From: a virus
Lineage: Duplodnaviria; Caudoviricetes
Strand: one strand, 5' to 3'
DNA: 49,175 bases
Virus record (IMG/VR): IMGVR_UViG_3300032074_000005
Span: 1 to 49,175 of that record
In this document: positions 5,833 through 25,227 of the stretch, in pieces
Layout: each line of letters opens with the position of its first letter
Numbering within the stretch: position 1 is the first letter of the stretch
Made by a program: the position numbers and the translations under genes
Notes under the pieces: generated by a model
The model's database searches: none
What the model was told of the DNA's origin: nothing
Seen by the model: the letters and a program-made list of their open reading frames with translations, nothing else

Positions 5833-5984
5833 GCGGGCTCCTCGGCCATCTCGCGCAGCAGCCCCGAAACGAGTCCAGCGACGTGAGTGCCGGTCGTCAA
5901 CCAGTTCGAGTCGCCACCCCAGACCGAACCCATGCTGTCGAAGTAGTCCGCTGCCTCACACAATGCCGCCTCGCGCTCGCTCAT
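5829..5984 (-). CDS. Hypothetical protein
   Basis: AGGAGG RBS, ATGA coupling. Confidence 0.6.
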   Translation of the reverse strand: MSEREAALCEAADYFDSMGSVWGGDSNWLTTGTHVAGLVSGLLREMAEEPA

Positions 5985-6000
5985 CCTCGAGCCTCCTGCT
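5976..6000 (-). repeat. 25-bp junction direct repeat (other copy 6408-6432)
   Basis: AGCAGGAGGCTCGAGGATGAGCGAG vs AGCAGGAGGCAAGAGGATGAGCGAG, 23/25 identical. Confidence 0.8.
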
Positions 6001-6244
6001 GCTTGAACTTGCATGTTTCCGGGGTCGTCACCATCGGGAACCCGTCGAGGTCGTAGGCGATGAGAGCGCCTGACCGGATGCATGCGGTCAGCGCCTCAAT
6101 TGCCTCGTCACGGCTCACGTTCTCGTGCTCGGCGTACTGGTCCGCGAGGTACGACGGTGAGAAGCCACTGAGGCGCCGGTCACCGAGCAGGCGATCCACC
6201 ACGGCAGTGACAGCCGCGTCACTCTCGGCGGTGTGCTCAGGCAT
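5981..6244 (-). CDS. Hypothetical cassette-type protein
   Basis: Starts MPEHTAESDA, carrying start motif A. Confidence 0.65.
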   Translation of the reverse strand: MPEHTAESDAAVTAVVDRLLGDRRLSGFSPSYLADQYAEHENVSRDEAIEALTACIRSGALIAYDLDGFPMVTTPETCKFKQQEARG

Positions 6245-6416
6245 CGGCGTTCCCCTCTCTGGGCGAAATGATGCGGCGAACCTCTGACGCGCAGGAGAGG
6301 AGCGTTCTGGCGACGAGCTGTGCTTCCTCAGGCCAGGTGAGCCTGGCGGCTTCGTGCTCCCACTCATCTGCCAGCCGCTCCAGCGCGCCTTTCTCGGCGC
6401 TACGGGTCTCGCTCAT
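6237..6416 (-). CDS. Hypothetical cassette-type protein
   Basis: MSETRSAEKGA...RIISPREGNADA; degenerate A and B motifs. Confidence 0.65.
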   Translation of the reverse strand: MSETRSAEKGALERLADEWEHEAARLTWPEEAQLVARTLLSCASEVRRIISPREGNADA

Positions 6417-6742
6417 CCTCTTGCCTCCTGCTCTCGCTTGCACGTACGCGGCGCCGAGTTCCGCACGCCTTCCTCGCTGCTGAACTTGCTCCAGGCGACC
6501 AGCACCGCCCGCAGATGCCCCCTTGCCTCGGCCGCGCCCCAAACGACGGGAGAGGGCCGCTCAGAGGCTCGTGTGCCGCCCTTGGTGCGGTAGTCAACGC
6601 CCTTGGTGCGCGTGATGGTCGTCTCGAGCTCGGACTCCAACCAGGGAATGTCGCCGAGTGCCTTGGCTAGTTCCTCGCTGCATGTGTCGCACACGTAAGC
6701 CTCGTCGCGGGTCGGGCGTCCGCACTTGCACGTGTTGGTCAC
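6413..6742 (-). CDS. Zinc-finger protein, probably a truncated relative of the 3990..4799 family
   Basis: CKCG...VCDTC..L...L..IPWL..EL pattern resembles the N-terminal half of 3990..4799; ends abruptly at the junction repeat. Confidence 0.5.
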   Translation of the reverse strand: MTNTCKCGRPTRDEAYVCDTCSEELAKALGDIPWLESELETTITRTKGVDYRTKGGTRASERPSPVVWGAAEARGHLRAVLVAWSKFSSEEGVRNSAPRTCKREQEARG

Positions 6743-6969
6743 TTGGCCTCCCATGCCGGCTCCCACGTCAGATCCGCGATGGGGCTCTCCTGGTAGTCCC
6801 GAACGGACTTCACCCAGAACGGATTCGCCGTGTACCGGTGCTCGCCATCTTTGCGACACGGGATGAACCGGCCGTGCGCGATGCAGACGGTGGGCGAGTC
6901 CTCGTCGCCCCAGAACGGCGGCTCGCATCCGCAGCCCTCGGTCGGGGTGGGGCAGTCTGCGGCGGTCAT
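6739..6969 (-). CDS. Hypothetical protein
   Basis: MTAADCPTPT..., coupled at both ends. Confidence 0.65.
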   Translation of the reverse strand: MTAADCPTPTEGCGCEPPFWGDEDSPTVCIAHGRFIPCRKDGEHRYTANPFWVKSVRDYQESPIADLTWEPAWEAK

Positions 6970-7169
6970 GCGTCGCACCCACAGGCGCCGTTCGCTGCCG
7001 GGACCATGAAGCACCGGGGGCAAGGGTCGGCCAGCGCGACGGGCTGCGGGCAGTTGACGTGCGCGACCTCGTCCTCAACATAGGTGCACAGGTCGTCCAC
7101 ACGGATCGCCTCATCGCAGACGCCGCAACGTCCGGGATAGCGCGCCTCAAAGGTGGCGCTCATCCTCAA
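6966..7169 (-). CDS. Small Cys-rich protein
   Basis: FEARYPGRCGVC...HVNC...CPRCF...CGC. Confidence 0.7.
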   Translation of the reverse strand: MRMSATFEARYPGRCGVCDEAIRVDDLCTYVEDEVAHVNCPQPVALADPCPRCFMVPAANGACGCDA

Positions 7170-7504
7170 ACCTCCCGCTCGGGGTCGGTGGGCTCGGGTC
7201 CAGCGAGCGCGGCACGGAGTGCGATGGAGGCGCGGTCAAGCACCTCGCCCTCATGGTCGGGGCCTTCGCCTTCCTGCCACGGACCCCAGCCGAACTCGCC
7301 CTTGTAGCGCCACCGGGCAGCCAGCGCCATCACCCGCTCCACCGCTGCCTGTGCCTGCGCCAGCTCGGGCAGGGCGCCGAGGGCGATCCTGGCGTTGGCT
7401 CGGTAGTAGCTGGCTGAGTCGCAGGGCCAGTTGGGACAACCCCCCGAGTCCTCGCGATGTAGCGCCTCGGCCACTCGCTCCAGCGCGTCTCGGTTCGTGC
7501 TCAT
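7166..7504 (-). CDS. Hypothetical protein, paralog of 7884..8186
   Basis: Shared blocks MSTNRDAL(V)ERVAEAL, ALPELAQAQAAVERV, RAALAGP. Confidence 0.75.
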   Translation of the reverse strand: MSTNRDALERVAEALHREDSGGCPNWPCDSASYYRANARIALGALPELAQAQAAVERVMALAARWRYKGEFGWGPWQEGEGPDHEGEVLDRASIALRAALAGPEPTDPEREV

Positions 7505-7887
7505 GCGGTCACCTCGGGTCGTGCGTCGCCTAGCCAGTTGGTCAGGTCGCGGCGGCCGAGCGGGTTGCGCTGCTTGCCCGCGTGGCGCTGGTTAGCCTGG
7601 GTCTGCCGCTGCACCTGGAAGTCGATTGGGAGACCGGTGAGCTCGCGCACGTAGGCCGATAGCGCGAAGTCGAGAAGGGTGGCGAATCCGTCCGGCGTCC
7701 CGGCCATGAGTGCGTCGTAGTCGTCGTCGGCGAGGATCAGCCGCAGGTCGACGTCCGAGGTTGGTCCAGCGGTGCGCTGCTGAACCGAGCCCACCAGGAA
7801 CGGCCCGCTGAACCCACCGAACACGGCGCTGATGTGCTTGCAGGCCAGGTCGAGTCGGTGGAGCATCGGCGGCGAGAGGGTGCTCAT
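7501..7887 (-). CDS. Minimal nucleotidyltransferase (Pol-beta superfamily)
   Basis: FLVGS...SDVDLRLIL...PIDFQ motif pattern. Confidence 0.7.
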   Translation of the reverse strand: MSTLSPPMLHRLDLACKHISAVFGGFSGPFLVGSVQQRTAGPTSDVDLRLILADDDYDALMAGTPDGFATLLDFALSAYVRELTGLPIDFQVQRQTQANQRHAGKQRNPLGRRDLTNWLGDARPEVTA

Positions 7888-8186
7888 GCGTCCTCCTCGC
7901 CGGACTGGGGTCCGGCGAGCGCGGCGCGGATGGCATGGGCGCACTCGACTTCGACCTCGCTGGCCGTGTCGATGTCATCGCGGATGTACCTTCCATCCCA
8001 GGTGGCAACGACCGCCGTCACCCGCTCCACCGCTGCCTGTGCCTGCGCCAGCTCGGGCAGGGCGTCGAGGATGGTGCGAGCTCGGCGGCGGTCGTATTGC
8101 CCGAACGTCTCCGTCTCGCGCTTGCTCGGCACGTTCGCCAGCGCCTCGGCCACTCGCTCAACCAGCGCGTCTCGGTTCGTGCTCAT
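7884..8186 (-). CDS. Hypothetical protein, paralog of 7166..7504
   Basis: Shared blocks, including a ~46-bp identical DNA segment. Confidence 0.75.
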   Translation of the reverse strand: MSTNRDALVERVAEALANVPSKRETETFGQYDRRRARTILDALPELAQAQAAVERVTAVVATWDGRYIRDDIDTASEVEVECAHAIRAALAGPQSGEEDA

Positions 8187-8449
8187 GCGTCGGCCTTTCC
8201 GGACGGAATGACGTTGCCCGCCGCGTCATCCCAGAGCCGGGCGATGGTGTCATAGTCGGGTTGGCTGCGATCCGCGTCTCCATCCCAGAAGTGCTCCGCG
8301 ACAACGGCGATCACCTCTTCGCGCAGGCGGGCCAAGTAGTCCGCTGCGCAGGTGAGAACCGGCTGCTTTCGTCGCGTCGCAGCCGCCGCATTCCAGTCAA
8401 AGACCGGAACCTCGCCTACCTGCTCAAAGGGGTCGTTGTAGTCGTTCAT
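8183..8449 (-). CDS. Hypothetical protein ending in boundary motif B
   Basis: C-terminus VIPSGKADA; AGGAG RBS. Confidence 0.7.
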   Translation of the reverse strand: MNDYNDPFEQVGEVPVFDWNAAAATRRKQPVLTCAADYLARLREEVIAVVAEHFWDGDADRSQPDYDTIARLWDDAAGNVIPSGKADA

Positions 8450-8928
8450 GCGGTCTCCTGTTCAGCGGGTTGGCGGCGCGGGTCGTGATCGGCGCACAGC
8501 TCGGGTTTGAGGCCGTGCGTGCAGAGTGCGGCGGTGGCTTCACGGAGCCGGGCGCGTGCTATCTCGGCGGCGTTGCTGCGGCCTCGTGCGGCGAGTGCGA
8601 GCGGGCGGAAGTCATGCCCGGACCACTGGTTGTGCGCGCCCTCGGTGCGGCCACAGTCGGCGCACGCCTCATGCTTCTTGGGTGGGCGCGGCGCAACACG
8701 CTCGATTTCCTTCGGCGGCGCTTCGTTCCAGTGCGGGCCGGCCGACGGGATGGCGCCGGGCGTCTTGACCTTCGTGTCGGCGGCAGCTCGCAACGTGGCT
8801 AGCGCAACCTCGAAGGCGTCACGGTCCTTGACGCGGCCGAGTGCGGCGTAGATGCCTTCCTCGTTCCACGCTGGCCGTAGGAGGTGCGTCAAGTGTGTGA
8901 GGGCTTGGGCTTGCTCGCGGCTCAGCAT
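8446..8928 (-). CDS. Hypothetical protein, replication-region associated
   Basis: L...LRPAW...GI...L; lies downstream of the initiator-like gene. Confidence 0.65.
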   Translation of the reverse strand: MLSREQAQALTHLTHLLRPAWNEEGIYAALGRVKDRDAFEVALATLRAAADTKVKTPGAIPSAGPHWNEAPPKEIERVAPRPPKKHEACADCGRTEGAHNQWSGHDFRPLALAARGRSNAAEIARARLREATAALCTHGLKPELCADHDPRRQPAEQETA

Positions 8929-9176
8929 GGCTGACTCCCCACCGCCGCGAAGTGCTCGACGGCACGCAGCCAGCGCGACCGCATGACAAGCGCAGCGATC
9001 TCGTCCGCGTTCTCCTCAAGCGTCCAGCCGCGGCGCCTGGCATCCCAGAGGACGTGGACCATGCCGGTGCTGTCGGCCTCCCATAGCTCGAAAGGCTCAC
9101 TGAGCCCGTACGTGCGACTGTCGAGGTCAAGCCATTCGGCATTCCTGATTCGCGGGTCGGTCGTCGGCTTCCTCAT
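8922..9176 (-). CDS. Hypothetical protein
   Basis: ATGA-coupled, starts MRKPTT. Confidence 0.6.
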   Translation of the reverse strand: MRKPTTDPRIRNAEWLDLDSRTYGLSEPFELWEADSTGMVHVLWDARRRGWTLEENADEIAALVMRSRWLRAVEHFAAVGSQPC

Positions 9177-9361
9177 GCGATCACCGCCGAGCGCAGCGAG
9201 GTCATGCATCGGGCAAGCCGCGCTGGAACAGTCTGGAGATGCGTGGCTAACGCAACCCAAACTCCGAATCCACCTCCTACTCCTACTCCCCCTCCTACTC
9301 GGGGATGAGGAGCGCGTGAGGAATTCATGAGCGCCTCATGAGCAACTAGTGAGAGATTCAT
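9173..9361 (-). CDS. Small ORF overlapping a repeat-rich putative origin
   Basis: ATGA coupling at both ends; GVGVGGG low complexity. Confidence 0.45.
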   Translation of the reverse strand: MNLSLVAHEALMNSSRAPHPRVGGGVGVGGGFGVWVALATHLQTVPARLARCMTSLRSAVIA

Positions 9362-9708
9362 GCGGCATCCTCGGGTGGCTCAGGGATGGTGCTGGGGGAT
9401 GGGTGAGGTGGTTTCTGATGTCTGGCCCACGTCGTCAGATAGCCGTAGGTGCCGCCATTGACTTGGTATGTGGTGACCATCCCTTCCGACTCGATCTCAC
9501 CTAGCCACCGCTTGATGCGAGCTGGCGGGATGTCGTCGTGCGGGAACAGCGAGCCGCAGATGGCGACGGGCGTGGCGATGAATCGGCCTTCGTCGTCGGC
9601 CATGCAGGTGATGAGGCCGGCGAGCGTGAGGCGTGCGTCGCGGCTGAGGCGGCAGACTTTGTCGTCGGACCAGAACGCCGTCTTGAGTGGGCGCGACTGG
9701 CGGGCCAT
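9358..9708 (-). CDS. Phage replication initiator / replisome organiser N-terminal-like wHTH protein
   Basis: MAR..R.LK..FWSDDKV..LS..ARL...GL....DDEGR...W..HQK. Confidence 0.7.
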   Translation of the reverse strand: MARQSRPLKTAFWSDDKVCRLSRDARLTLAGLITCMADDEGRFIATPVAICGSLFPHDDIPPARIKRWLGEIESEGMVTTYQVNGGTYGYLTTWARHQKPPHPSPSTIPEPPEDAA

Positions 9709-10532
9709 CAGGCGACACCGCCGAACAATGTGTCCTGGCAGAGGCGCTTGGCTGCGACCTCGCAGTACCGCTCAGACTTCTCGATGCCGATGGCACGAAC
9801 GCCGGCATCCTTGGCAGCTCGAAGAGTCGTCCCGCTACCCGCGAAGGGGTCTGCCACTAGGGCCGGCGCGGTGGTCTCGATGGCGGCCGCAGGCAGACTG
9901 AGTGGGAACGGCGCAGGATGGTCGGGGTTCGATTCCTGCGGTATGCGCCACACGTCACCTAAGCCGGAGGCGGCCTTGCTCTTGAGCCGGAACCCGGGCT
10001 TGGCGAACACCATGATCCACTCGTGCGTCGGAACGTAGTGCGTCGGCGCGTAGTTCATTCCTCCCGACCGCGCCCACACGACAATCTGCCTGATGGGCAG
10101 GTCCGGGTTCAGTGCGAGCGGGGTCCAGAGGGTGCCAGCTTGAACACGGGGCTTGTGGTTGTAGTAGATCGCACCCGTATCGCTGAGCGATGCCCAGCAT
10201 GCAGCGAGGACACGGCGCTGCCACTCCTCATACATCCGGTATGGCATCGCGTCGTTGTGTGAGTCATATCCGATCCCATCACCGTCATGTTTAGCGGCAA
10301 CCCACTTGCCTTTGCCGCCGTGTGGCTGGCCGTCCTTCCAGTGGCCGAAGCCGCCACCCGTGGTGACCCCGAGGTTGTACGGAGGTGACGTGACGATGAG
10401 GTCGACGCCGGAAAGATTGGGAAGAATGTGCTCGCAGTCGCCGTGGTACAGCGTCACGAGATCGTCGGAGTAGTACGGAACTACCCGGGCGGGGGGTGTT
10501 GCCTCTTCGGAGGCGGGTGGCACAATGGTCAC
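9708..10532 (-). CDS. DNA N6-adenine/N4-cytosine methyltransferase (beta class)
   Basis: TLYHGDC, IVTSPPY, HPAPFP, DPFAGSGTT, GIEK; AAGGAG RBS before the GTG at 10532. Confidence 0.9.
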   Translation of the reverse strand: MTIVPPASEEATPPARVVPYYSDDLVTLYHGDCEHILPNLSGVDLIVTSPPYNLGVTTGGGFGHWKDGQPHGGKGKWVAAKHDGDGIGYDSHNDAMPYRMYEEWQRRVLAACWASLSDTGAIYYNHKPRVQAGTLWTPLALNPDLPIRQIVVWARSGGMNYAPTHYVPTHEWIMVFAKPGFRLKSKAASGLGDVWRIPQESNPDHPAPFPLSLPAAAIETTAPALVADPFAGSGTTLRAAKDAGVRAIGIEKSERYCEVAAKRLCQDTLFGGVA

Positions 10533-10536
10533 GCGA

Positions 10537-11800: not shown

Positions 11801-11944
11801 TCACGATTCCTCCAGGTCGTCCGCGTCGGGCATCCGGTTCGCGTCGTACAGGTGGCCTCCGCTGCGGACGGTGTACGGGTGATCACCGAGGCGGCGTGAC
11901 TCGATCTCGTCGACCAAGTTGGGCGTGGCGTCGAAGGTGTTCAT
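11801..11944 (-). CDS. Hypothetical protein (47 aa)
   Basis: MNTFDATPNL...; starts in the ATGA of motif B. Confidence 0.5.
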   Translation of the reverse strand: MNTFDATPNLVDEIESRRLGDHPYTVRSGGHLYDANRMPDADDLEES

Positions 11945-12186
11945 GCGTCGGACTTTCCGGGCGGAATGACGCGCACGAACATGGGCGGGATGAAGTTGTC
12001 AGCCCCGCACGATTGACACATCCAACCTTCGCTAGATGGGAAGTTCTCGCTCAGCCGCGCTGCGTGTATACGGCAGGCCCCGCATGGCTTGGTTCTGTTG
12101 CTGTAGGCCACGTCCCAATGCATCGGGTGATACTCGCGGCACAGCGCCGCAGCAAGTGCGTCATTCTCGGCGGAGTACTCGCTCAT
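11941..12186 (-). CDS. Hypothetical cassette-type protein
   Basis: MSEYSAENDA...RVIPPGKSDA; motifs A and B. Confidence 0.7.
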   Translation of the reverse strand: MSEYSAENDALAAALCREYHPMHWDVAYSNRTKPCGACRIHAARLSENFPSSEGWMCQSCGADNFIPPMFVRVIPPGKSDA

Positions 12187-12698
12187 GCCTGCCCCCTCAA
12201 CGCAGCAGCCTCGGCCTCGATTTGCTTGCGCCGTTCGGGATCTGCGGTGCCCCATTCAGCCTTGAGCGCCCCGAGGAGTTCGGCGTTCGGGTCGGGCGGG
12301 GGTGCGTCGGGGAGCGGCTGCACGACGTGCAGCGACTTCTTGCCCTTCGACTCGGCGAGCGCGATCTTCACGGGCTCCTTGATATGCGACATATGGCTCA
12401 CGCGAATGCCGCCGATCTCCTGGCCGGCCCACTTGACCTTCGCGTCGCGGTACAACGTGAAGCGGGGACGCTCGGGCCAGTCGTCGGTCTCCTCGCCCCA
12501 GACGTGCGAGAGCAGCCGCAGGACGGTCTTGGAGGGCTTGAATGGGCGGCTGGCGGGGAACTCCTCGAGCACGATCGCGACGGGCTGATCAGCGTCACCG
12601 CGGCGAACATCGGCAACCGTGAAGGTGCGAGGGCCCCCCACAAGGTCGTCTGCGTTGAGTTGGTCGCTGCGGGCGAGGATCGCTTGGCTGAGGTTCAT
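12183..12698 (-). CDS. Conserved phage protein, probable recombination/ssDNA-binding partner of RecE
   Basis: I.ARSDQLNADDL...PFKPSK...V.W.G..IGGIRVSH; lies downstream of the exonuclease. Confidence 0.65.
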   Translation of the reverse strand: MNLSQAILARSDQLNADDLVGGPRTFTVADVRRGDADQPVAIVLEEFPASRPFKPSKTVLRLLSHVWGEETDDWPERPRFTLYRDAKVKWAGQEIGGIRVSHMSHIKEPVKIALAESKGKKSLHVVQPLPDAPPPDPNAELLGALKAEWGTADPERRKQIEAEAAALRGQA

Positions 12699-12701: not shown

Positions 12702-13108
12702 CACTCCTCGTCTTTCGTGTCGATGACCGCGCAGTCGTCCTCTATGTGCAGCCCGACTACCTGCGGTCCAGTCGATCCGTAGGGAGCGATATGAAGGAAG
12801 GTGTAGGAATCCATCTCGTAATCGCCGCCCTTGTAGCCCCGGAAGGTCTTTCCGTCAGCGGCATCCAGGGATGCGATCACCTCGCGGGCTGTGGTCGAAC
12901 CGCCATCAGCCGCGAAAGCCAGGCGCTCGTAGTAGCCGCGATACGAGTCGAGCGATCCCGGTGCGCCCCCCTTGTCGATTACGACGGGCGTCTCTGGGGG
13001 CAAGGTCGCCAGCGTCGAGCGAAGTCCTCCGAGAGTCATCACCCCGGCTCTTCGCGCGTCCTCGTTGCACTTGGCATTCACTAGATCCATCAGGAAGTCG
13101 AGGTTCAT
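12698..13108 (-). CDS. Hypothetical protein
   Basis: MTLG.L...SYRGYYERLAF...F.GYKGGDY.M. Confidence 0.7.
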   Translation of the reverse strand: MNLDFLMDLVNAKCNEDARRAGVMTLGGLRSTLATLPPETPVVIDKGGAPGSLDSYRGYYERLAFAADGGSTTAREVIASLDAADGKTFRGYKGGDYEMDSYTFLHIAPYGSTGPQVVGLHIEDDCAVIDTKDEEW

Positions 13109-13980
13109 CACATGCTCAATTCGGGTTCGGCGAACGGGTTGAGGTGGTTCGGCAGTAGGTCGCCGTACTGGTAGAAGTAGCGATTGGGTAGCCCGGTCGG
13201 ATCGGCGTGCAGGCTGGGATATCCGGCCCACTGTCCGCTCTTCATCGCCTCGGCGTAGATGTCGATGGCGCGGTCGTTGAGTGCCCGAGCGACTTCGATT
13301 GCCAGCGGGTCGCAGGTGTGCACCTGAACGAGGTACGGGTCTTGCGTCTCCTGGACGATGAACCGCATGGGTTCGTCTGCTGCTTCGTGGCCTAGCGCGT
13401 ACAGGCCGCGCTGGTAGAACTCGGCCTGCTGGTGGTAGCCGTAGGTCGACATGGCGTGCTCGAACCCGCGTGCGGAGGAGTCCTCGGCTGTCTTGTAGTC
13501 CCAGGCGAGCCTGTCGCCGAGGAGGTCGTAGCGGGCTCGGCACCAGACGTCGCCCTCTTGCCAGAAGGCAGACACCTCTGATTCGCAGCGGTCGAGGATC
13601 GCGGCAACTTCCGGCGTTTCGCGCAGGACGATTGCCATGCCGAGGATCTGGTTGCGTTCGGCTTCGGTGACCGCTACTGCGGCCTCTGTGGAGAGCTTGT
13701 CGGCGACAGCCTCTCGCTCAGCCTTGCCAGCCTTGGTGCGTCCGTCGTGCTGCCAGACGATCAGCTCGGGGCCGGCGCCGAGTGCGTGCGCGTGTGCTGC
13801 CTTGCCGAGGTTCATCGACTTGGTTGGCTTGCGGTTGATGTGACATGCGCGCGCCTTGGCTGGTACGTGGCTGGTGAGCAGCCGTGCGAACGTGCTCGAC
13901 AGCGAACCACCAGGCACAGGATCGCCGTGGTAGGTCTCGTCGGACATGCCGCGGACGAGGCGGGGTTCTGTGATACTCAT
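13108..13980 (-). CDS. RecE/exonuclease VIII-like PD-(D/E)xK nuclease
   Basis: YH....LSST..., LG.AAH, E.S.FW, CRARYD, DYKT, YHQQAEFY. Confidence 0.85.
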   Translation of the reverse strand: MSITEPRLVRGMSDETYHGDPVPGGSLSSTFARLLTSHVPAKARACHINRKPTKSMNLGKAAHAHALGAGPELIVWQHDGRTKAGKAEREAVADKLSTEAAVAVTEAERNQILGMAIVLRETPEVAAILDRCESEVSAFWQEGDVWCRARYDLLGDRLAWDYKTAEDSSARGFEHAMSTYGYHQQAEFYQRGLYALGHEAADEPMRFIVQETQDPYLVQVHTCDPLAIEVARALNDRAIDIYAEAMKSGQWAGYPSLHADPTGLPNRYFYQYGDLLPNHLNPFAEPELSM

Positions 13981-14521: not shown

Positions 14522-14679
14522 GACTCCTCCCGCTCGTCCAGCCGCCCGCTCAGGTCGGGGTCGGGGATCAGCCACACCAGCAGCCGCTCGACGAACGGGA
14601 AACGCTGGTAGAGACGGTCCAGGGCGACGCCGGCGACGAGGATCGCGGCCATTGCGAGAAGGGCGGGGATGATGCTCAT
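14518..14679 (-). CDS. Small membrane protein
   Basis: MSIIPALLAMAAILVAGVAL..., coupled. Confidence 0.55.
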   Translation of the reverse strand: MSIIPALLAMAAILVAGVALDRLYQRFPFVERLLVWLIPDPDLSGRLDEREES

Positions 14680-15179
14680 GCGCTGACTCCCTCGCTGAGC
14701 ACGCGGACGGCGGCGATCTCGTCGTACTCGCGGGGTTGCGTATGCCCATCAGTGTTGGGAAACCAGGGGTTGCGCGTGAAGTCGTCCGCGCCAGCCTCGA
14801 CGCGAGTCCATCGAAGGCCATTCGCGTCCTCGACCACCGCACCGAGGCCCTGCGGCTCAGGCGGCTTCGGCGGGCGGGTCTGCGCCTCGATCTGGTCGAG
14901 CAGTCGACGGATCGCGTCTTTCTCGACGGTGAGCGAAGTCCACCCAGTCCACCGCGCCAGGGCTTCACGGAGCCTGGGAATGTCCTCGCCCAGGTCCAGC
15001 GTGACGAGGGGGCGGATGTCGGTGACGTCATGCGGAGCGTGCGCGCGGCCTCCCTTCATATAGACGGACGAGAGCCATGCGCGAGTGCCCGTTCCGCCCT
15101 CGAAAAGCATCACCCGCACGCCCTCGACCCCGCGCACGGTGGCCGTCGCAACGGTGCCGATCGGGTAGTCGCCGCTCAT
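14676..15179 (-). CDS. Hypothetical protein
   Basis: MSGDYPIGTVA...EP.GLGAVVED; coupled. Confidence 0.7.
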   Translation of the reverse strand: MSGDYPIGTVATATVRGVEGVRVMLFEGGTGTRAWLSSVYMKGGRAHAPHDVTDIRPLVTLDLGEDIPRLREALARWTGWTSLTVEKDAIRRLLDQIEAQTRPPKPPEPQGLGAVVEDANGLRWTRVEAGADDFTRNPWFPNTDGHTQPREYDEIAAVRVLSEGVSA

Positions 15180-16573: not shown

Positions 16574-16580
16574 GAGGATA

Positions 16581-17335: not shown

Positions 17336-17620
17336 GTGAGACTCACGATTCACGAAGCGTTACCTATGCTTGGAGTGGCGGCCTTGTGGCTTACAGCGGT
17401 GGTGCTCATGGGGGTCGACTTCGCCGACGGTAGCCGGTCAGTCATGGGCAGACTCGCGCTGCTCATCGGACTGGCCGCAGGGTGCGGAACCCTCATGATC
17501 GCCATGAAGCACTGTCGGCGCGTCATCCTCGAGGTGATGAGCTGGGAGCACCGCATGTATGACCGGCGCGTCACCGACACTGATCGGGCTGAGCGGAGCA
17601 ACGTCCGGGCGATCCGCTAG
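17336..17620 (+). CDS. Two-TM membrane protein, likely lysogen-expressed
   Basis: GGGGGAG RBS, two hydrophobic segments, co-oriented with the repressor. Confidence 0.65.
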   Translation: MRLTIHEALPMLGVAALWLTAVVLMGVDFADGSRSVMGRLALLIGLAAGCGTLMIAMKHCRRVILEVMSWEHRMYDRRVTDTDRAERSNVRAIR

Positions 17621-18816
17621 CCGAGCTGCAACCGTTCGGCGACCCGCTCGAGGGCCTTGCGCGCCTGCGTGACGTCGACGTGCTCGTACCCTCTGGTGCT
17701 CGCGATGCTGCTGTGTCCCATGATCTGAATGCGCACGGCCTCGTCGACGCCGAGCTTCATCAGGAGTGTGGCGGTGGCGTGGCGGGCCTCGTGGAGCTCG
17801 TAGTAGCGGCCGGACGGGTGCCGGACGCCGACGGTGTCCTGTAGGGCCCGCCATTCGAGCCGGTCCTGCCGTGCGGAGGCGGGTGAGCCGGATTGTGCGG
17901 GCCAGACGAGCCCGTGCGGCGACGCGGGTGCGACCTCACGCCAGGAGGCCAGCGACTCGGCCATCCACGGCACGAGCGGGATGACGCGCCACCCAGCCCG
18001 CGACTTCGGCCGGACGAGGTGCAGCGACTTCTCGAGCCGCTTCGCCTCGTAGCCGTCGGGGATCCGGAAGCCGAGCGCCTTGCGCGAGCGGTCGACGTAG
18101 GGGAGCGCCTGCAGCTGCCAGGAGACGGACAGCCGATCCTCGTCGACCTCGTCCCAGGTGAGCCCGAGGCATTCACCTTGCCGCATGCCCTGTAGGAACG
18201 CCGCCAGCCATCGAGAGCCGTGCGGGAGGGTCGCGGCGACGGCGAGCATGGCGAGCGCGTCGGGTTCGGCGACCTCCTGCCGATCGGTCGGTGCCGGGGC
18301 TGGCGCCTTCACGTCGAGCACGCGAGCGGGGATCGAGTAGCCCTCGGCCTGCGCCGCCTTGAGCATCCGTATCAGCGTCCCGTGATAGCGCCGCACGGTG
18401 CTGCTGTTGCCGGTCCCTTCGCGCACCTTGGCGTCGACGGCCCGCACGTCGGCCGGCGCGAGCTGGACGAGCCGCTTGTGCCCGATCACGGGCACGATGT
18501 ACTTCCTGACGGCGCCGAGGTCGGTCGTGTGCGTCTTGGGCCGGTCGGTGCGCTCGGTCATCTCGAGCCACGTCTCGGCCCATGCCTTGACGGTGGTCCG
18601 CGGCGACGTGCTGGTCTCGCCGCGGTCGAGGTCGCGTGCCTTGAGCTTGAGCTTGGTCTTGACCTCAGCCTCGGTCTTGGCTGTGACGACGATGCGGCGT
18701 CGTGCGCCGGTCGAGGTCCAGCCTGCCTCGATGGTGCCGACCCAGCGGTTGTCGCTGCTGCGTTGGTAGACCGAGCCGCTGGCGTACTGGCGGCGCTTGC
18801 GGGGGCGCGGGCTCAT
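17617..18816 (-). CDS. int: Tyrosine integrase
   Basis: GSVYQR arm-binding N-terminus, GMRQGE, PKS, HEARH, MGH, catalytic Y. Confidence 0.95.
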   Translation of the reverse strand: MSPRPRKRRQYASGSVYQRSSDNRWVGTIEAGWTSTGARRRIVVTAKTEAEVKTKLKLKARDLDRGETSTSPRTTVKAWAETWLEMTERTDRPKTHTTDLGAVRKYIVPVIGHKRLVQLAPADVRAVDAKVREGTGNSSTVRRYHGTLIRMLKAAQAEGYSIPARVLDVKAPAPAPTDRQEVAEPDALAMLAVAATLPHGSRWLAAFLQGMRQGECLGLTWDEVDEDRLSVSWQLQALPYVDRSRKALGFRIPDGYEAKRLEKSLHLVRPKSRAGWRVIPLVPWMAESLASWREVAPASPHGLVWPAQSGSPASARQDRLEWRALQDTVGVRHPSGRYYELHEARHATATLLMKLGVDEAVRIQIMGHSSIASTRGYEHVDVTQARKALERVAERLQLG

Positions 18817-19982
18817 TAGTCCCCCTTGACGTTCACGATCTGTCGAAGCGTGTGGTCGACGGACACAAGATCGGCGGCGTCCCGCATCACGATGTCGATG
18901 TCCTTGTATGCGTCCGGGTGCTCGTCGAGGAAGGCATCGGAGCGGCCCCATTCGATGCCGTCCATGCGCCGGTCGAGGTCGTCACGAGTGAACAGCCGCT
19001 TGGCGGCGGACCGCGAGTGGTTGCGGCCGGCGCCGTGCGGGCTTGAGTTCAGCGCGAGCCGGTTACCCTTGCCCGTCACGACGTAGGACGCGGCACCCAT
19101 CGAGCCGGGAATGAGTCCCCGGACTCCCTCAGCGGCGTCGATCGCGCCCTTGCGGGACAGCCACACGTCCTTACCGAAGTGCTTCTCGCGCACCGTGTAG
19201 TTGTGGTGGCAGTTGATCGTCTCGGACTCGTCCAGGCGCGACCTTCCAGCCCAATCGAGGAAGGCGTCGACGACGCGGTGCATCATCTCTTCGCGGTTGA
19301 GGTAGGCGAACCGCTGGGCCCACCGCAGAGCCTCCATGTAGGACCAGAACTCCGGCTCGCCTTCCACGAGGTAGGCGAGGTCGCGGTCGGGCAGGCTGAT
19401 CCACCGCTTCTCGCACTGCTGCTGAGCAACCTTGATGTGCTTCATGGCGAGCTTGTTCCCCACGCCGCGGGAGCCGGAGTGCAGGAACAGCCAGACGCGG
19501 TCCTGCTCGTCGAGGCTGACTTCGATGAAGTGGTTGCCCGAGCCGAGCGAGCCGAGCTGCAGCCGCCAGTTCGGCGCAATGGCCTCCGCCTGCTCCGCGC
19601 CAGCCATGCCTTCGAGCTCGGCAACGCGCTTGGCCGTCTCTTCGGAGTAGAGGTCGGTGTTGTACTTGCCCGCCGACAGCGGCACCTTCGCGCTGATTGC
19701 AGCGTGGAGCGGGGCGCGGTCTGTCGGCAGGTCATCGACGTGCCAGCCGGTTCGGATCGCCATCATGCCGCAGCCGATGTCGACCCCGACCGCGGCCGGA
19801 ATGATCGCGCCGAGCGTCGGGATCACGGAGCCGACCGTCGCACCCTTCCCGAGGTGCGCGTCGGGCATCAGCGCCAGGTGGGGATGAATGAACGGCATGG
19901 AGGAAGTCAGGACGGCCTGCTGGCGCGTGTTGTCCTCCAGGATCGACGCCCAGTTCATCAGCCGCTTGCTTACCTGCTCCAT
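18816..19982 (-). CDS. rtcB: RtcB RNA ligase
   Basis: MPDAHLGKG, GVDIGCGM, LGSGNHFIE, LHSGSRG, HHNY, RKGA, IPGSMG, HGAGR, DE.P.AYK, VKG. Confidence 0.97.
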   Translation of the reverse strand: MEQVSKRLMNWASILEDNTRQQAVLTSSMPFIHPHLALMPDAHLGKGATVGSVIPTLGAIIPAAVGVDIGCGMMAIRTGWHVDDLPTDRAPLHAAISAKVPLSAGKYNTDLYSEETAKRVAELEGMAGAEQAEAIAPNWRLQLGSLGSGNHFIEVSLDEQDRVWLFLHSGSRGVGNKLAMKHIKVAQQQCEKRWISLPDRDLAYLVEGEPEFWSYMEALRWAQRFAYLNREEMMHRVVDAFLDWAGRSRLDESETINCHHNYTVREKHFGKDVWLSRKGAIDAAEGVRGLIPGSMGAASYVVTGKGNRLALNSSPHGAGRNHSRSAAKRLFTRDDLDRRMDGIEWGRSDAFLDEHPDAYKDIDIVMRDAADLVSVDHTLRQIVNVKGD

Positions 19983-20491: not shown

Positions 20492-20655
20492 GCCACTTCG
20501 AGCGTGAACTGACCCGCGAGCTGACCAGGCGTGCGCGTCGCATGACCGACGACGAGCTTGCGGCGCTGCTGCTGGACCCGGAGACGTCGGTGCCGGGTCT
20601 GCGCGTGGTGCAGGCCGAGGTTGAGGCGCGGGCCGGTCGTAGGGTGGCGTCGTGA
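20488..20655 (+). CDS. Hypothetical protein (55 aa)
   Basis: MSHFERELTREL...; coupled at both ends. Confidence 0.6.
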   Translation: MSHFERELTRELTRRARRMTDDELAALLLDPETSVPGLRVVQAEVEARAGRRVAS

Positions 20656-20939
20656 GCGAGGCGGAGGCTGTAGCCGACAGCGCCGAGAATGACGCGGGTC
20701 GAATGGCACGCGACCAGCGCCGGTACGAGCACGTAGCGGAGACGCTACACAAGGCAGTCGCGTGGGCCGAGGATGCCGAGGCTCGCTGCAAGGCCCTCGC
20801 GGACAAGATCGACCGCTGCACAGAGCACCTGCGCGTCGCCCTTGGATACACCGAGGGCGGGCACGACGCGGGCCTAGAGGCTCTGGCCGTGCAGGTCAGG
20901 CGTGCCCGTGTCATTTCGCCCGGAAAGGCCGACGGGTGA
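20652..20939 (+). CDS. Hypothetical cassette-type coiled-coil protein
   Basis: ..AVADSAENDA...RVISPGKADG; motifs A and B. Confidence 0.7.
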   Translation: MSEAEAVADSAENDAGRMARDQRRYEHVAETLHKAVAWAEDAEARCKALADKIDRCTEHLRVALGYTEGGHDAGLEALAVQVRRARVISPGKADG

Positions 20940-21106
20940 CCGCAGACCTACTCCGCCGCGCCGCCGTGAGAGCGCAGGAGGACCCAGATCCGCGCTGGCA
21001 TCCCGTGGGCGAGTGGCTGGCGGAGACTGCGATCCGTTGGGATTGGGTTGAGGAGCGCGACTTGGCAGCCGCCGTCGCCCGCGCACTCCTGGGCGAGTCG
21101 GCATGA
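20936..21106 (+). CDS. Hypothetical protein
   Basis: VTADLLRRAA..., coupled. Confidence 0.6.
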   Translation: MTADLLRRAAVRAQEDPDPRWHPVGEWLAETAIRWDWVEERDLAAAVARALLGESA

Positions 21107-21414
21107 GGCTGACCGAGTTCCTACTGGCGCGGATCGCTGAGGATGAGACCGATGGGCCTCGGCATCCTGACTGGTGCCGAGCGGTCGCTGATGACCAAGC
21201 GTGCGACTGCGATGGCCCCGCTCGCATCCTGGCCGAGTGCGAGGCCAAGCGGCGGATCGTGCAGGAATACTCCGAGCGGGACGCCGACGTGGACCTGATG
21301 CTGGGGCCGAACACTCTTCGACAGCGCGAGTGGTCTGGACTACGGCTCGCCCTCCGCTACCTCGCCCTGCCCTACGCCGACCACCCGGATTACCGCGAGG
21401 AGTGGAAGCCGTGA
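21103..21414 (+). CDS. DUF6221-like protein
   Basis: FLLARIAEDE...PARILAECEAKRRIV...LALPYADHPDYREEW. Confidence 0.8.
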   Translation: MRLTEFLLARIAEDETDGPRHPDWCRAVADDQACDCDGPARILAECEAKRRIVQEYSERDADVDLMLGPNTLRQREWSGLRLALRYLALPYADHPDYREEWKP

Positions 21415-21590
21415 CGCTTGACGAGGCACCCGTGGGCACGATCGTAACTGTCGGTCACCCGGCGAACGCGAGTACCGCGACGAAGTACCCCGATGGGGCC
21501 TGGCGCTACACCTTCCCGCCTCATCGAGTGGTCGACTACGACGATCTCCACAAGACTGCCCGCGCCGTCTACATTCCCGAGCGCGCATGA
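21411..21590 (+). CDS. Hypothetical protein
   Basis: VTLDEAPVGT..., GTGA-coupled. Confidence 0.55.
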   Translation: MTLDEAPVGTIVTVGHPANASTATKYPDGAWRYTFPPHRVVDYDDLHKTARAVYIPERA

Positions 21591-21592
21591 AG

Positions 21593-21628
21593 AAAGCCCC
21601 CCGCCTGCCGAAGCAGACGGGGGGCTTT
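21593..21628. terminator. Bidirectional intrinsic terminator
   Basis: AAAGCCCCCCG.CTGC-cgaa-GCAG.CGGGGGGCTTT between convergent operons. Confidence 0.8.
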
Positions 21629-21706
21629 GTCCCGGGGGCGGCCACGACGAGCCGCGTGGGCTGCGTCTGCCGCCTCTCACCGCCGCGGCAGGTGAGGCGC
21701 TGGGGG

Positions 21707-22021
21707 CTAGGTGACTTGGATCCGGTTGTAGCTGCCGGTCGCTGCGGTCAACGGGATGACTTCGGGGCTGTCGGTGGCGCGGATGTCGAGCGCCTGATAG
21801 GTGCCTTTCGGTGTGGCCGCGTCGACGAACAGGGACACCTCAGCGGTCGAGAGGCTGGGGTTGTCGACCTTGTCTGCTGCCTGCCAGTCGGTGTCGGGGG
21901 TGTCTGCGTCGCCGACGAGTTTGACGGTCCAGGTCACGGCGGTGATGTCGAGGCCGTTGCGTTCGGTGACGGTGGCGGTGACGTACTCCGCTTCGCCGTT
22001 GGTCGCGTCGATGGTCCTCAT
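21707..22021 (-). CDS. Beta-rich virion-associated protein (BppU-N/Ig-like?)
   Basis: ATGA-coupled to 22018; GTY....R.TDSPE.I. Confidence 0.5.
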   Translation of the reverse strand: MRTIDATNGEAEYVTATVTERNGLDITAVTWTVKLVGDADTPDTDWQAADKVDNPSLSTAEVSLFVDAATPKGTYQALDIRATDSPEVIPLTAATGSYNRIQVT

Positions 22022-23928
22022 GGGGCCTCCATTCGGGCGGTCATGCGGCGGGGCTCGAGGTCGGCTGTCATGCGCCGGCCGAGTAGTCGGGCGGTGAGTG
22101 CGAGGTCGCGTTCGTTGCCGGGGATGATGCCGAGCGCGGTCAGGGTGCCGTTGCCTGCGAGGTCGGCTGCTGCTGCGGCGTTGACTTGCGCGGCGTAGGT
22201 GAGGGTTCCTTCGCCGCTGAGCTCGACCGTGATGCTGGTGGCGGCTGTCCCTTGGGCGGTGAGTGTGCCGGTGCCGTTGAACGCGGCGGTCGCTGAGCCT
22301 GAGCCGGATGCTGCGGCGGTGAGGTTGCCCGCGCCGGTCAGGGTGACGGTGGCACCGGTTGCGGGTGCGCCGGCCGCCGTGAGGGTGCCTGTCCCGCTCA
22401 GTGGCGCCGTCGCTGTCGTCTGCGCCTTGCCGGTGGCGGTGAGCGTGCCAGCGCCGGACAGGGTGGCCGTGCCGAGCGCGTCAGCCTGGGTCGCCGCGAT
22501 CTCGAAGTTGTCGCGCTTCTCCCACCCCTGCGCCGTCATGTGCGTGGAGTCGGTGGGGTAGATCCAGTCGGCGGGGTCGTACACACCGGCTGCGTGAATG
22601 TGCGTGTTCCAGTCAAGCAGGGTCGCGTTCGTGGCGCCGGACATCACCGACGCCAGGAGTGGGTTGAAGTGGGCGGCGTTCGTGTTGGCGGCCGAGTAGT
22701 AGGCCAGGTTGACCCACAGCACCTTGCCGGTCGTGCCGATGCCGTTGAGGATCGCCTGAGCACCGGCCGTGAACGCGGAGTCCGTCTCGCCCGTGTCGTT
22801 GGTGCCTAGGCCGATGATCCAGAAGTCGACGGTGCCGAGCTGGGCCTTCGCGGCGGCGATGTTGTCGGCGACGGTCTTGCCGTTGGCGTCGGTGCCGACC
22901 ATCGGCTTGCCACCGACTGCGTACCAGTAGATCGAGGCGTCGTCGAAGCCTGCCGCCTGGAACCTTGAGCGGGTGATGGATTCGCGGCTGGGCGGGTTGG
23001 CGTCGGAGCCGGATCGCCAGGTGAGTGAGTCGCCGATGATGGCGACGGTGGGGTGGCTGAGGTTGCGGGTAGCGGTGAGCGTGCCGCTGCCGGACAGTGT
23101 CGCCGTGACCTTGGCTGCTGGTGTGCCTGTCGCGCTGAGTGTGCCGCTGCCGGCGAGGTTGACGGCTGCCCCGTTGCCAGCGATCCCGGTCGCGGTGAGT
23201 GTGCCGTCCCCGCTGAACGATGCCGACCCGCTGTGTGCCTCGGTGCTGACTTGCGCGAACGACAGGGACACGGCGGCGTAGGTGACGGCGAGTGGCTGCC
23301 CGGTCGAGCTGCTGGTGATGGCCGCGGTCGGTGTCGTGGAGCCTGCCGCGGCGCGCTGTGACTCGAGGACGCCACCGTTTCGCGGGTTGCCGGAGCCGCT
23401 GGACAGCTTGACCCCGGACACGGTGTATTCGGAGCCGGACGGTACGCCCATGACCGACGACTGGTTGCCGAGCACGAACGCGGCGTGAACCAGGGAGCCG
23501 GCCGCAGCGTTGACGGCTGGTGCGGCAGGGTTCGTGGTGGTCGTGTTGCTGAACGTTCCGACAGCGGCGACGTCGATCGGCGCGTTCGGGTTCTCTCCGG
23601 TGACGGTGGCTGCGTACCAGGCGAGCCCACCAGCGACGGAGCGGGTGACGGTGATCGTGTCGGTTGCTGTGAGCGGGTTGGTGATGACGCTGGTGTAGGT
23701 GGCGACCGTCGAGGCGTTGGTCGTCGCGGATGCTGTGCCTTGCAGCGTCCAGGTGTTGCTCTTGGAGTCGGTGACGGTGAACGTGATCGACGCGGCACCT
23801 GCGTAGATGTCGAGGACGACCATCGTGCCCGCAGGCACGGCTGCCCCGACCGCGACCGGCCCCGAGGTGGAGACGTTCGCGGACGAGGCGTACCCGGCGC
23901 CTAGCGGTGTCCCGAGGGAGACGGCCAT
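22018..23928 (-). CDS. Minor tail/fibre protein with SGNH hydrolase domain
   Basis: IIGDSLT, GLGTND, DSTH blocks flanked by about 10 repeats of A.LSG.GTLTA. Confidence 0.8.
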   Translation of the reverse strand: MAVSLGTPLGAGYASSANVSTSGPVAVGAAVPAGTMVVLDIYAGAASITFTVTDSKSNTWTLQGTASATTNASTVATYTSVITNPLTATDTITVTRSVAGGLAWYAATVTGENPNAPIDVAAVGTFSNTTTTNPAAPAVNAAAGSLVHAAFVLGNQSSVMGVPSGSEYTVSGVKLSSGSGNPRNGGVLESQRAAAGSTTPTAAITSSSTGQPLAVTYAAVSLSFAQVSTEAHSGSASFSGDGTLTATGIAGNGAAVNLAGSGTLSATGTPAAKVTATLSGSGTLTATRNLSHPTVAIIGDSLTWRSGSDANPPSRESITRSRFQAAGFDDASIYWYAVGGKPMVGTDANGKTVADNIAAAKAQLGTVDFWIIGLGTNDTGETDSAFTAGAQAILNGIGTTGKVLWVNLAYYSAANTNAAHFNPLLASVMSGATNATLLDWNTHIHAAGVYDPADWIYPTDSTHMTAQGWEKRDNFEIAATQADALGTATLSGAGTLTATGKAQTTATAPLSGTGTLTAAGAPATGATVTLTGAGNLTAAASGSGSATAAFNGTGTLTAQGTAATSITVELSGEGTLTYAAQVNAAAAADLAGNGTLTALGIIPGNERDLALTARLLGRRMTADLEPRRMTARMEAP

Positions 23929-23938
23929 CTACGTCGCG

Positions 23939-24286
23939 TCAGCTCTGCGAGAAAGTAAAGGTGACGGAGTAGGTCCCCTGCGAGTTGAAAGCCTGGCTGG
24001 TCACCGTCGCCCCGTCGAGGTACGTGCCACCCGTGACGGCCGTGTGCACGCCGACGCCGACGATGGTCGCACCAGCAGGAACGTCGAAGGTGGCGGTTGC
24101 GGTCACGACGCCGTCGACTGTGCCGGCGGTCCAGGTGAGCGGCTTGCGTGCGTAGGCCGGTGACCCACCAGACGGCTCAGTGCCTGCCGACGCACCGGGA
24201 GCGGTCGTGTAGATCGCGCCATAGGTGGCGTTGGTGCCGTATGCGACGGCGAGGTTTTCCTTCTGCTGCGCGGTCTGGATGGCCAC
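23939..24286 (-). CDS. Minor tail protein
   Basis: PG..G.E.SGG..AYAR...W...FDVP.G.T....G. Confidence 0.65.
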   Translation of the reverse strand: MAIQTAQQKENLAVAYGTNATYGAIYTTAPGASAGTEPSGGSPAYARKPLTWTAGTVDGVVTATATFDVPAGATIVGVGVHTAVTGGTYLDGATVTSQAFNSQGTYSVTFTFSQS

Positions 24287-24310
24287 GGGGTCTCCTTCAG
24301 GTTGGGCGGG

Positions 24311-24631
24311 TCAGTGGGAGCCGGTGAACGGGGTTGTATCGGGGCCGTGCTTGGAGAATCGACCGTGCGAGTCGCGGTCCGCGGCCTTCTTGATGCCTTC
24401 GTGGAAGGGTTCCGAGTTCGGCAAAGCGTTGATGTGCACCGCACCCTTGACCGGCGTGACGAACTGGCGGCTGATGAACCCGGCGACAATGGGCGCGAGG
24501 AGTGCGACGGCGCCCATGATGGCGGCGGTCTGCTCCTTGGACAGGTGCAGGCCGAACGCTGCGGCGAGGGCGAGACCTGCGGCGACGATGGCCGTAATGG
24601 TGGAGGCGGAGAGAACGGGCTCGCGCTTCAT
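24311..24631 (-). CDS. Holin
   Basis: EPV...two TM helices...R.FVTPV; GAGGAG RBS. Confidence 0.75.
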   Translation of the reverse strand: MKREPVLSASTITAIVAAGLALAAAFGLHLSKEQTAAIMGAVALLAPIVAGFISRQFVTPVKGAVHINALPNSEPFHEGIKKAADRDSHGRFSKHGPDTTPFTGSH

Positions 24632-24664
24632 GGTGCTCCTCAGATTTCGTTGAGAAAAGGTGGG

Positions 24665-24701
24665 CAGGTGTATTGACAGGTGTATGTACACCTAGTAGTG
24701 T
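24665..24701 (+). promoter_or_regulatory. SigA-type promoter with overlapping operator
   Basis: TTGACA(24673)-17 nt-TAGTGT(24696); palindrome AGGTGTA-tg-TACACCT; direct repeat CAGGTGTAT. Confidence 0.8.
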
Positions 24702-24749
24702 TCTTCTTGTCAGGCGGAAAGGCCGCCTCGGAGCCCCAGGAGGGCGAAA

Positions 24750-24875
24750 ATGTTCGCTACTCTCGCCGCCGCCAAGGTCGCCGCTCGCGAGTTCTTCGCA
24801 TCGGACTCCCGCATCGCCGCGGTCGTCTACATCGTCGCCGGCCGCGAGGTGCGCATCACACGGAAGGACGTGTGA
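24750..24875 (+). CDS. Small hypothetical protein (41 aa)
   Basis: AGGAGG RBS; MFATLAAAKVAAREFF...; TGATG coupling. Confidence 0.6.
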   Translation: MFATLAAAKVAAREFFASDSRIAAVVYIVAGREVRITRKDV

Positions 24876-25027
24876 TGCGGATGCCGAACCAGCCCCGCAA
24901 GGAGAACCCTGCCCGCGCCATTCGCGTGCCGGACGAGTTGTGGCAGGCCGCTCAGAAGCGAGCGGGCGAACGAGGCGAGACGGTCAGCGAGGCCGTACGC
25001 CGATTCCTAGAGAGGTACGTGAAGTGA
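24875..25027 (+). CDS. Ribbon-helix-helix (CopG/Arc-like) repressor
   Basis: RAIRVPDELWQAAQKRAGERGETVSEAVRRFL. Confidence 0.85.
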   Translation: MRMPNQPRKENPARAIRVPDELWQAAQKRAGERGETVSEAVRRFLERYVK

Positions 25028-25227
25028 CCGAGCCCAACGCTGTAGCCCACACCGCCGAGAATGACGCAGTGGAGCGTGCAGCCTGCGCCCTCGATGACTT
25101 GGCGCTGGCACTAATGAGCGGGAGCGCGGACAACCCCGAAGGGAACCGACTCACCGCCGCCGTGGTCCACAAGTGTGCAGCAATCGTCCGACAGCACCGC
25201 GTCACACCGTCAAAGGCCGACGCATGA
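25024..25227 (+). CDS. Hypothetical cassette-type protein
   Basis: ..AVAHTAENDA...RVTPSKADA; motifs A and B. Confidence 0.7.
   Translation: MTEPNAVAHTAENDAVERAACALDDLALALMSGSADNPEGNRLTAAVVHKCAAIVRQHRVTPSKADA

Follow-up and report, generated by a model that had tools for sequence, protein, structure and literature searches.

A virus genome of 49,175 nt, IMG/VR record IMGVR_UViG_3300032074_000005, here analyzed over its whole length (positions 1 to 49,175) and called the window, carries small genes that share two short terminal sequences around unrelated interiors. Motif A, CGCCGAGAATGACGC, lies shortly after the start codon, and motif B, GCGTCATTCCGCCCG, shortly before the stop; the two are mirror images of each other and lie inside the first and last codons. 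A and B form a real, apparently undescribed pair of coding-embedded inverted ends that mark mobile small genes across unrelated soil actinophages. The two ends, their constraint at the DNA level, their linkage on one open reading frame (ORF), the unrelated cargos between them and traces of movement are directly visible in the sequences. Judged by comparison among genomes, cassette behavior of some kind, taken jointly over the three readings discussed below that involve mobility, is likely.

Three exact copies of A were found in the window, along with one copy carrying 1 mismatch and another carrying 2 (Table 1). A 30-nt pattern containing B is present exactly at 8183-8212 (-), 11941-11970 (-) and 20910-20939 (+), and degenerate copies lie at 25199-25213 (+) and 6260-6274 (-). 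Counts are far above chance, with 4 matches to A against 0.11 expected and 3 to B against 0.00; in neither case did any of 100 shuffles reach the observed number. A first-pass annotation of this DNA had placed the A and B sites at these positions, and all were confirmed. It had also described four two-ended ORFs (81, 95, 67 and 59 aa) as unrelated in their interiors, and tblastn among them gave no match at E 1e-3. None of the six A/B-bearing window proteins could be assigned to a PHROG or Pfam family, and tblastn of cassette 11941..12186 against GenBank phages was without a match. In refined form, A reads (GAGCACAC)CGCCGAGAATGACGC, 8-32 nt downstream of the start (about 29 bits), and B reads (C)GCGTCATTCCGCCCG, 10-37 nt upstream of the next start (about 24 bits). 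Four window cassettes have one common tail behind B, ahead of four different downstream genes. The longer form of B proposed in the first pass includes this window-specific tail and therefore matched nothing elsewhere (0 matches in a strict long-B scan of IMG/VR). The sequence GACGCATGA occurs at seven window gene junctions, at 6974, 7892, 8191, 11580, 11949 and 16142 (-) and at 25219 (+); three of these are B tails and four are without B.

Carriers beyond the window were sought by exact-motif scans of IMG/VR, GTDB contigs and metagenomes, keeping matches in which A lay close to a start or B close to a stop; raw matches of 15-16-nt patterns were mostly chance. One IMG/VR scan covered 33 of the collection's 64 parts. 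Counts exclude duplicates of fetched records and, in the metagenome scan, the record of the window itself (L340). A/B sites were present in 19 carrier records (G001-G019) and in G021, all from soil phages, and in 8 short metagenome contigs. Another contig search added, from a single run, 4 contigs bearing A, of which one had B as well. The GTDB contig scan gave 1 true site among 23 matches, and no full cassette was seen among the examined matches to GenBank phages and plasmids. Altogether, 35 non-redundant A-led ORFs were collected (two of them probably chance), 22 of which end in the B peptide; in three more cases (G008, G016 and L345) A and B enclose two coupled ORFs. Most carriers have one or two copies of A and one or two of B on the same ORF, which argues that A-cargo-B is inherited as a unit. 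The A-to-B distance is 92-373 nt, cassette ORFs encode 48-135 aa, and a record holds 1-6 copies of A. Cargos mostly differ and are ordinary coding DNA (GC content at third codon positions, GC3, 0.82 versus 0.87), and the reading frame is nearly always kept, with one exception (G014, 50574). The carriers themselves form several groups sharing little DNA; no gene family is common to all of them, and the widest, a lysin-like protein, is found in 8/20. These records bear out the earlier suggestion that in other phages diverse ORFs, at variable loci, lie between A and B. Translational coupling, also proposed in the first pass, is preserved in most full cassettes, with the next start codon at the stop in 19/22.

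Some carriers show more elaborate arrangements. In G021 (L360:1300-2400), five small genes in a row contain decayed, partial and internal copies of A or B. In G019 (L299:3860-4040), an A-cargo-A ORF surrounded by a 21-nt direct repeat has a prohead protease to one side and a capsid gene to the other. Tandem arrays of paralogous genes of about 120 aa lie around cassettes in G014 (L312:8400-11700) and G004 (L288:13300-15500), with 13 copies in 4 phages. An exonuclease in G011 (L305:18089-19037) has a 14-aa extension and B, followed by a ribosome-binding site (RBS), start and A and by an orphan ORF; this may be a circularly permuted insertion into the exonuclease C-terminus, and a homolog search returned only G011 itself.

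The ends are conserved as DNA and not only as peptide. For a non-circular codon test, ORFs were taken through A (n = 35) and B was sought as a peptide only, which was found in 22. Within that peptide, Val is GTC in 21/21 cases (50% in window genes), Ile is ATT in 16/16 (10%), and the Pro codons are CCG in 18/19 (53%) and CCC in 20/21 (29%). EHTAENDA was found at 5 sites in 4 contigs by a fully degenerate scan of IMG/VR; every site has ACC GCC GAG and GAC GC, with AAT in 3 and AAC in 2. Fixed rare codons of this kind support the DNA-level signal inferred in the first pass, for which conservation at synonymous sites had been suggested as a check. The two arms have in common a 7-nt box, a variable 3-nt middle and GACGC. 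Variation in both is confined to that 3-nt window (AAT in A, ATT in B), which changes non-synonymously (N/K/I/S; I/T/F), and conservation ends sharply at the two short boxes, beyond which leader and tail vary.

Although the cores of A and B are exact complements, own pairs of ends do not covary. Complementarity counts quoted earlier for three cassettes (10/11, 9/10 and 10/11) are correct by inspection and do not demonstrate covariation: over 22 cassettes, own pairs were no more complementary than shuffled ones (p = 0.93, 0.74 and 1.0), with inner flanks at 21/66 against a shuffled mean of 24.7 and 41/132 against 43.6, and cores at 173/198 against 173.6. The result fits a protein that reads each end rather than selection for pairing. 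A:B pairing above 0.5 was predicted for 14/24 circular units, for 7/24 and 10/24 linear single-stranded DNA (ssDNA) strands and for 4/24 mRNAs, a comparison in which circularity shortens the loop by construction and the RNA and DNA energy sets differ. A:B pairing in a circle, as foreseen in the first pass, is commoner by prediction than pairing in mRNA, the alternative named there, which is only weakly predicted. An inversion switch was also considered and set aside: 16/22 inverted cargos remain open, which is uninformative because the codon-aligned antisense frame has few stops in GC-rich genes.

Comparison among phages yields several traces of movement. One cargo occurs at three loci (G001, G018 and L346), once fused behind another cassette's B; a homolog search with the L346 cargo returned only L346 itself. 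The window 20652 cassette and a different G005 cassette both precede homologous downstream genes, and in G002 a cassette lies between terminase and portal, two genes that are adjacent in 3/3 relatives (G001, G011 and G012). Counterparts lacking the ends are also found. The native protein P0002, 66-68% identical to the 20652 interior, has neither A nor B end, and Bongo gp85 and a G005 gene are cargo homologs without A at the matching 5' place. Such alignments indicate that the cargos are native genes with their ends replaced. G004 and G010, locally 97% identical, differ by a replacement (allele swap) that starts after ATGAGTGA and ends inside A. Direct repeats flanking 25 cassettes exceed those of shuffled pairs (p < 5e-5) and of 621 ordinary small genes (p = 0.004). 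They lie mostly over the RBS and start and reach 27 nt in L339, 19 in G006, 15 in L346, 21 around the G019 A-A unit and 25 around the window 6416/6244 pair. Behind the window 25024 cassette stands a copy of the first codons of gene 6739-6969 (Table 1), probably a flank brought along during a move, so the outer junctions are imprecise. The first-pass proposal of a fixed crossover at the RTGA stop/start overlap is not supported, since duplications and carried-over flanks span from a few to 27 nt around the RBS and start.

Table 1. Positions of A/B cassettes, single ends and related features in the window.
Feature	Positions	Strand	Remarks
Cassette ORF, 81 aa, A exact and B consensus	11941..12186	-	ATGA overlaps couple both ends
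A end (left), exact	12158..12172	-	
B end (right), consensus 15-mer	11958..11972	-	followed by the window's common tail and next start
Cassette ORF, 95 aa	20652..20939	+	interior 66-68% identical to native protein P0002
A end, exact	20681..20695	+	
B end, variant	20908..20922	+	
Cassette ORF, 67 aa	25024..25227	+	within small plus-strand block of lysis/tail region
A end, exact	25053..25067	+	
B end, degenerate	25199..25213	+	
35-nt copy (97%) of stop/start junction and first codons of gene 6739-6969 (6941-6975, -)	25218..25252	+	directly behind 25024 cassette
Cassette ORF, 59 aa, degenerate A (6385-6399, 2 mismatches) and B (6260-6274)	6237..6416	-	
Natural tandem junction, B - RBS - stop/start - A	6216..6274	-	layout expected of a circularized cassette
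A-only ORF, 87 aa, A at 6216-6230 with 1 mismatch	5981..6244	-	
Left copy of 25-nt direct repeat (RBS and start) around 6416/6244 gene pair	6408..6432	-	
Right copy of 25-nt direct repeat around 6416/6244 pair	5976..6000	-	
B-only ORF, 88 aa, B at 8200-8214	8183..8449	-	
A-like site, 2 mismatches, in A reading frame inside gene 14676-15179	14914..14928	-	possible relic
Exonuclease VIII (RecE)-like PD-(D/E)XK nuclease	13108..13980	-	context; candidate for homology-driven exchange
Phage tyrosine integrase	17617..18816	-	no integron-integrase match; most carriers without it

The explanation we prefer, with somewhat less than even confidence, is that A and B make each gene a non-autonomous single-gene mobile cassette, moved as a small circle by a sequence-specific factor acting in trans. 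We infer one such factor because the ends are invariant rather than covarying, symmetric in what they tolerate, sharply bounded, and present in phages without a common enzyme. A single protein, from the host or a helper element, would read both arms. Excision as a small circle would bring B next to A with the RBS and stop/start between them, the order seen in the natural tandem junctions, and reinsertion would occur at or near a stop/start overlap, often duplicating 10-27 nt of the translation-start region. With one copy of the duplicated start region driving the cassette and the other the next gene, coupling would survive. New cargo would enter when the few codons at either end of a native gene are replaced in frame, and selection probably freezes the reading frame. 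A broader version is more tentative still: a phage-wide cassette system with neither platform nor enzyme of its own, in which a host or helper recombinase captures native genes in frame, moves the circles between unrelated actinophages and rebuilds coupling.

A number of results weigh against movement as circles by a dedicated factor. No enzyme was found, nor any autonomous element (A and B around a recombinase) in the loci examined. The palindrome expected of a circle site, with B-core joined to A-core by crossover in CCGCC, had 2 matches in IMG/VR, and the empty A-core/B-core palindrome had 2 in 401 Actinomycetes genomes; all four were chance. B-A circle junctions were absent among the 15 joints listed out of 88, all in assembled contigs. 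Among five natural B-RBS-start-A junctions, a significant ssDNA fold was predicted in two, the best being a 14-bp stem in G007. Flanking repeats exceed the 99th percentile in only 3/25 cassettes (Fisher p = 0.09 versus ordinary genes), and an exact-run measure at the start codon gave 5.11, versus 5.12 for consecutive window genes. Lengths of leader and tail vary, unlike the fixed geometry of transposon ends. Finally, the 35 A and 29 B sites returned by a matrix scan of the carriers, versus 2 and 1 in reversed sequence, are partly circular because the carriers were found by the motif itself.

Candidate enzymes were sought in the carriers. The phage integrase, named as a candidate in the first pass, is not supported: carriers have a tyrosine integrase (window, G001, G003, G005 and G015), a serine integrase (G002, G012, G016 and G018) or, elsewhere, none detected. 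No phage recombination gene or enzyme common to the carriers was found. No cognate transposase was present among the shared families or among 47 non-window proteins scanned, which were chosen from 117 near sites or with recombinase motifs. The window integrase gave no match to the integron integrase model TIGR02249, and the best of four other tyrosine recombinases scored 54 bits against a cut-off of 265. One carrier has an integron-like layout: in G001 (L281:3250-4721), a Xer-like tyrosine recombinase, with only distant relatives in GenBank phages (29%), is directly followed by a nested A-cargo-B-cargo-B ORF. The window also encodes an RtcB-family RNA ligase (18816-19982, -), directly upstream of the integrase gene with a 1-nt overlap; RtcB was rejected as a partner, being present in only 1 other carrier. 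On the host side, B was considered as a repeat resembling repetitive extragenic palindromic (REP) elements and rejected, as it is present in 3/401 genomes, in single copy and without cassette context. Chi signals are strongly over-represented in host chromosomes; in 81 Actinomycetes genomes, the density of the 9-nt core does not exceed about 11 per Mb, with no enrichment, although the true host may lie outside this set. These Actinomycetes tallies (palindrome, B repeat and Chi) include seven genomes flagged as unpublished (G027, G035, G044, G050, G052, G056 and G063), which underlie none of the positive findings.

Relaxed homologous recombination is the strongest rival, and we consider it possible but on the unlikely side. 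Here A and B would be shared homologies of 15-25 nt serving as exchangeable slots, whose cargo is swapped by exonuclease and single-strand annealing proteins; whole units would move through microhomology at the RBS and start, and the inverted symmetry would be a relic or a helper ssDNA stem, with no dedicated enzyme. Rad52-like recombinases drive mosaicism of temperate coliphages, according to PMC3945230. RecE-like or YqaJ nucleases are found in the window and G018, a nuclease-like family is common to five carriers, and the carriers share no recombinase. Variable junctions, imperfect 14-27-nt direct repeats, short homology at exchange borders and breakpoints in shared words all point the same way, as do the 35-nt flank and the single tail of four window cassettes. 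Homology would, however, be served equally well by leader and tail, yet conservation has sharp edges, and phages with almost no DNA in common carry a motif that hardly varies. This reading leaves unexplained why the linkers are inverted copies whose variable 3-nt middle is the same, and insertion at non-homologous places, such as between terminase and portal, takes more than slot exchange. Under relaxed recombination, the imprecision of the outer junctions and the lack of an enzyme make sense, whereas the symmetry does not.

We regard a purely regulatory role as improbable. A and B would then be binding sites for a protein of host or phage, or arms of an mRNA stem enclosing the ORF, that tune translation of the ORF or the next gene, and the genes would move by ordinary mosaicism. 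Position fixed relative to start and stop, a frame fixed with the single G014 exception, and cargos that are real coding sequence by GC3 would all be expected, and start-associated sequences (SAS) and their extended form (ESAS) are a precedent for start-linked repeats in actinophages (PMC3203893). Against this, pairing was predicted in only the 4/24 mRNA folds noted above, with no compensatory changes, and an Rfam search of the window gave no match. The tagged genes, usually one or two per genome, have unrelated products at scattered sites, and native homologs manage without the ends.

Two-step site-specific integration appears very unlikely. In this reading a tyrosine recombinase would use a palindromic site on the circle and a degenerate target, with crossover in the direct CCGCC of A and B or in a 6-nt core at the inner edge, leaving A and B as attL/attR-like products. 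CCGCC is indeed direct in A and B while the cores are inverted, and the G004/G010 breakpoint falls in that segment. Native starts in cultured phages (Piccadilly gp47 and Madraxi gp61) match only the left half of A. In-frame GAYGC occurs 2, 5 or 8 nt before B in 11/36 sites, from about 7 independent families, versus a 2.8% background, and of eight registers tested the 6-nt inner one scored best (own 0.46, cross 0.41, background 0.27; p = 0.044, uncorrected). But no genuine palindromic site was found, and of 5 matches to an empty target one was plausible (L356), in a phage without B. In the window, a single tail precedes four distinct downstream genes, and where the gene upstream of the G018 cassette occurs in other phages, no leader is seen at that place. 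The proposal that AENDA and RVIPP are terminal peptide signals with incidental DNA likeness accommodates the nearly constant frame but is contradicted by the codon data, with synonymous positions fixed on rare codons and a middle codon that changes non-synonymously, and can be given hardly any credence.

The record has direct terminal repeats and 66% GC, and the genome is that of a circular temperate actinophage with siphovirus structural genes, endolysin, tyrosine integrase, RtcB, two WhiB-like genes, methylases and an exonuclease VIII-like nuclease. Cassette 11941..12186 is directly downstream of the exonuclease VIII-like gene and that gene's neighbor, 12183-12698, which is unassigned. The host is probably an actinomycete, as the terminase-portal DNA has 64-67% matches in phages of Streptomyces, Mycobacterium and Gordonia. 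Read runs with half or more of the record's words, or nearly so, are soil metagenomes, and no RNA run was among those listed as containing its words. Other repeats also occur in the window. Two paralogous small genes, 7166-7504 and 7884-8186 (-), begin alike and also share a middle block of 67 nt (93%) and a peptide close to the end; the segments between these blocks differ, a case of intragenic shuffling without A/B. Family phrog_908 has two members, 6413-6742 (-) and 3990-4799 (-), of which the first is short (109 aa versus 269) and ends in a repeat in common with 5981-6244. Three related HNH endonuclease segments lie at 3420-3860, 4796-5302 and about 27900-28130 (repeat families D1 and D8).

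In actinophages, mosaicism at the level of single genes is commonly ascribed to illegitimate recombination, without conserved boundary signals. A and B are such signals, common to phages that differ in structural, replication and integration modules, and searches of intergenic repeats miss them because they sit inside coding sequence. If true, movement by a dedicated enzyme would amount to an engine for single-gene mosaicism, and a recombinase that inserts whole genes into operons with coupling intact would be a useful tool. Even if homology alone were responsible, genes would here be exchanged through universal linkers of natural origin. Two sequences of 15-20 nt and a predicted junction make the question directly testable.

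A literature search by motif strings and topics, covering mostly openly accessible papers without their supplements, found no description of this system, and A/B cassettes are not members of the integron, mycobacteriophage mobile element (MPME), promoter early stem-loop (PeSL) or SAS classes. With SAS and ESAS they share short conserved repeats linked to translation starts in actinophages. The SAS of cluster K are described as 13-bp sites that resemble an RBS and precede starts, with 11-19 in each genome (PMC3203893), whereas A, a low-copy motif (1-6 per record), comes after the start and has a partner, B, at the stop. PeSLs of T4-like phages are short common sequences that shuffle small non-essential genes and give mini-circles, according to PMC2839356. 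The PeSLs are promoter/terminator cassettes that recombine among themselves; A and B differ from one another, are mutually inverted and lie within ORFs. MPME1 and MPME2 likewise are small, have inverted ends and are dispersed among unrelated actinophage clusters; their length is given as about 440 bp, with a single ORF of 123 residues and, at the left end, a gap of 6 bp (PMC4351075). In A/B cassettes the cargo is different nearly every time, the A-to-B distance varies and the ends lie inside the ORF. Miniature inverted-repeat transposable elements (MITEs) and mobile insertion cassettes place cargo between short imperfect inverted repeats and rely on an enzyme in trans. A/B cassettes would have the same plan but differ in showing no fixed-length target duplication (best flanking repeats 5-27 nt, at variable distance) and no cognate transposase among the proteins scanned, and B is not multicopy in the 401 Actinomycetes genomes. 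Integron cassettes keep their structure by covarying arms, whereas the A/B sequence is fixed; the A/B ends are coding, both arms stay with one ORF, and no integron integrase scored above the cut-off. Integron core sites are reported as RYYYAAC/GTTRRRY (PMC5027507), and A/B column profiles lack them. Although A/B units lack the integron hallmarks of core sites and IntI, the nearest analogy in working would be the integron cassette or an insertion sequence-derived passenger cassette: like integron gene cassettes, A/B units are promoterless, single-ORF and occasionally in tandem, with imperfect inverted ends that may form a bulged stem and a predicted circle.

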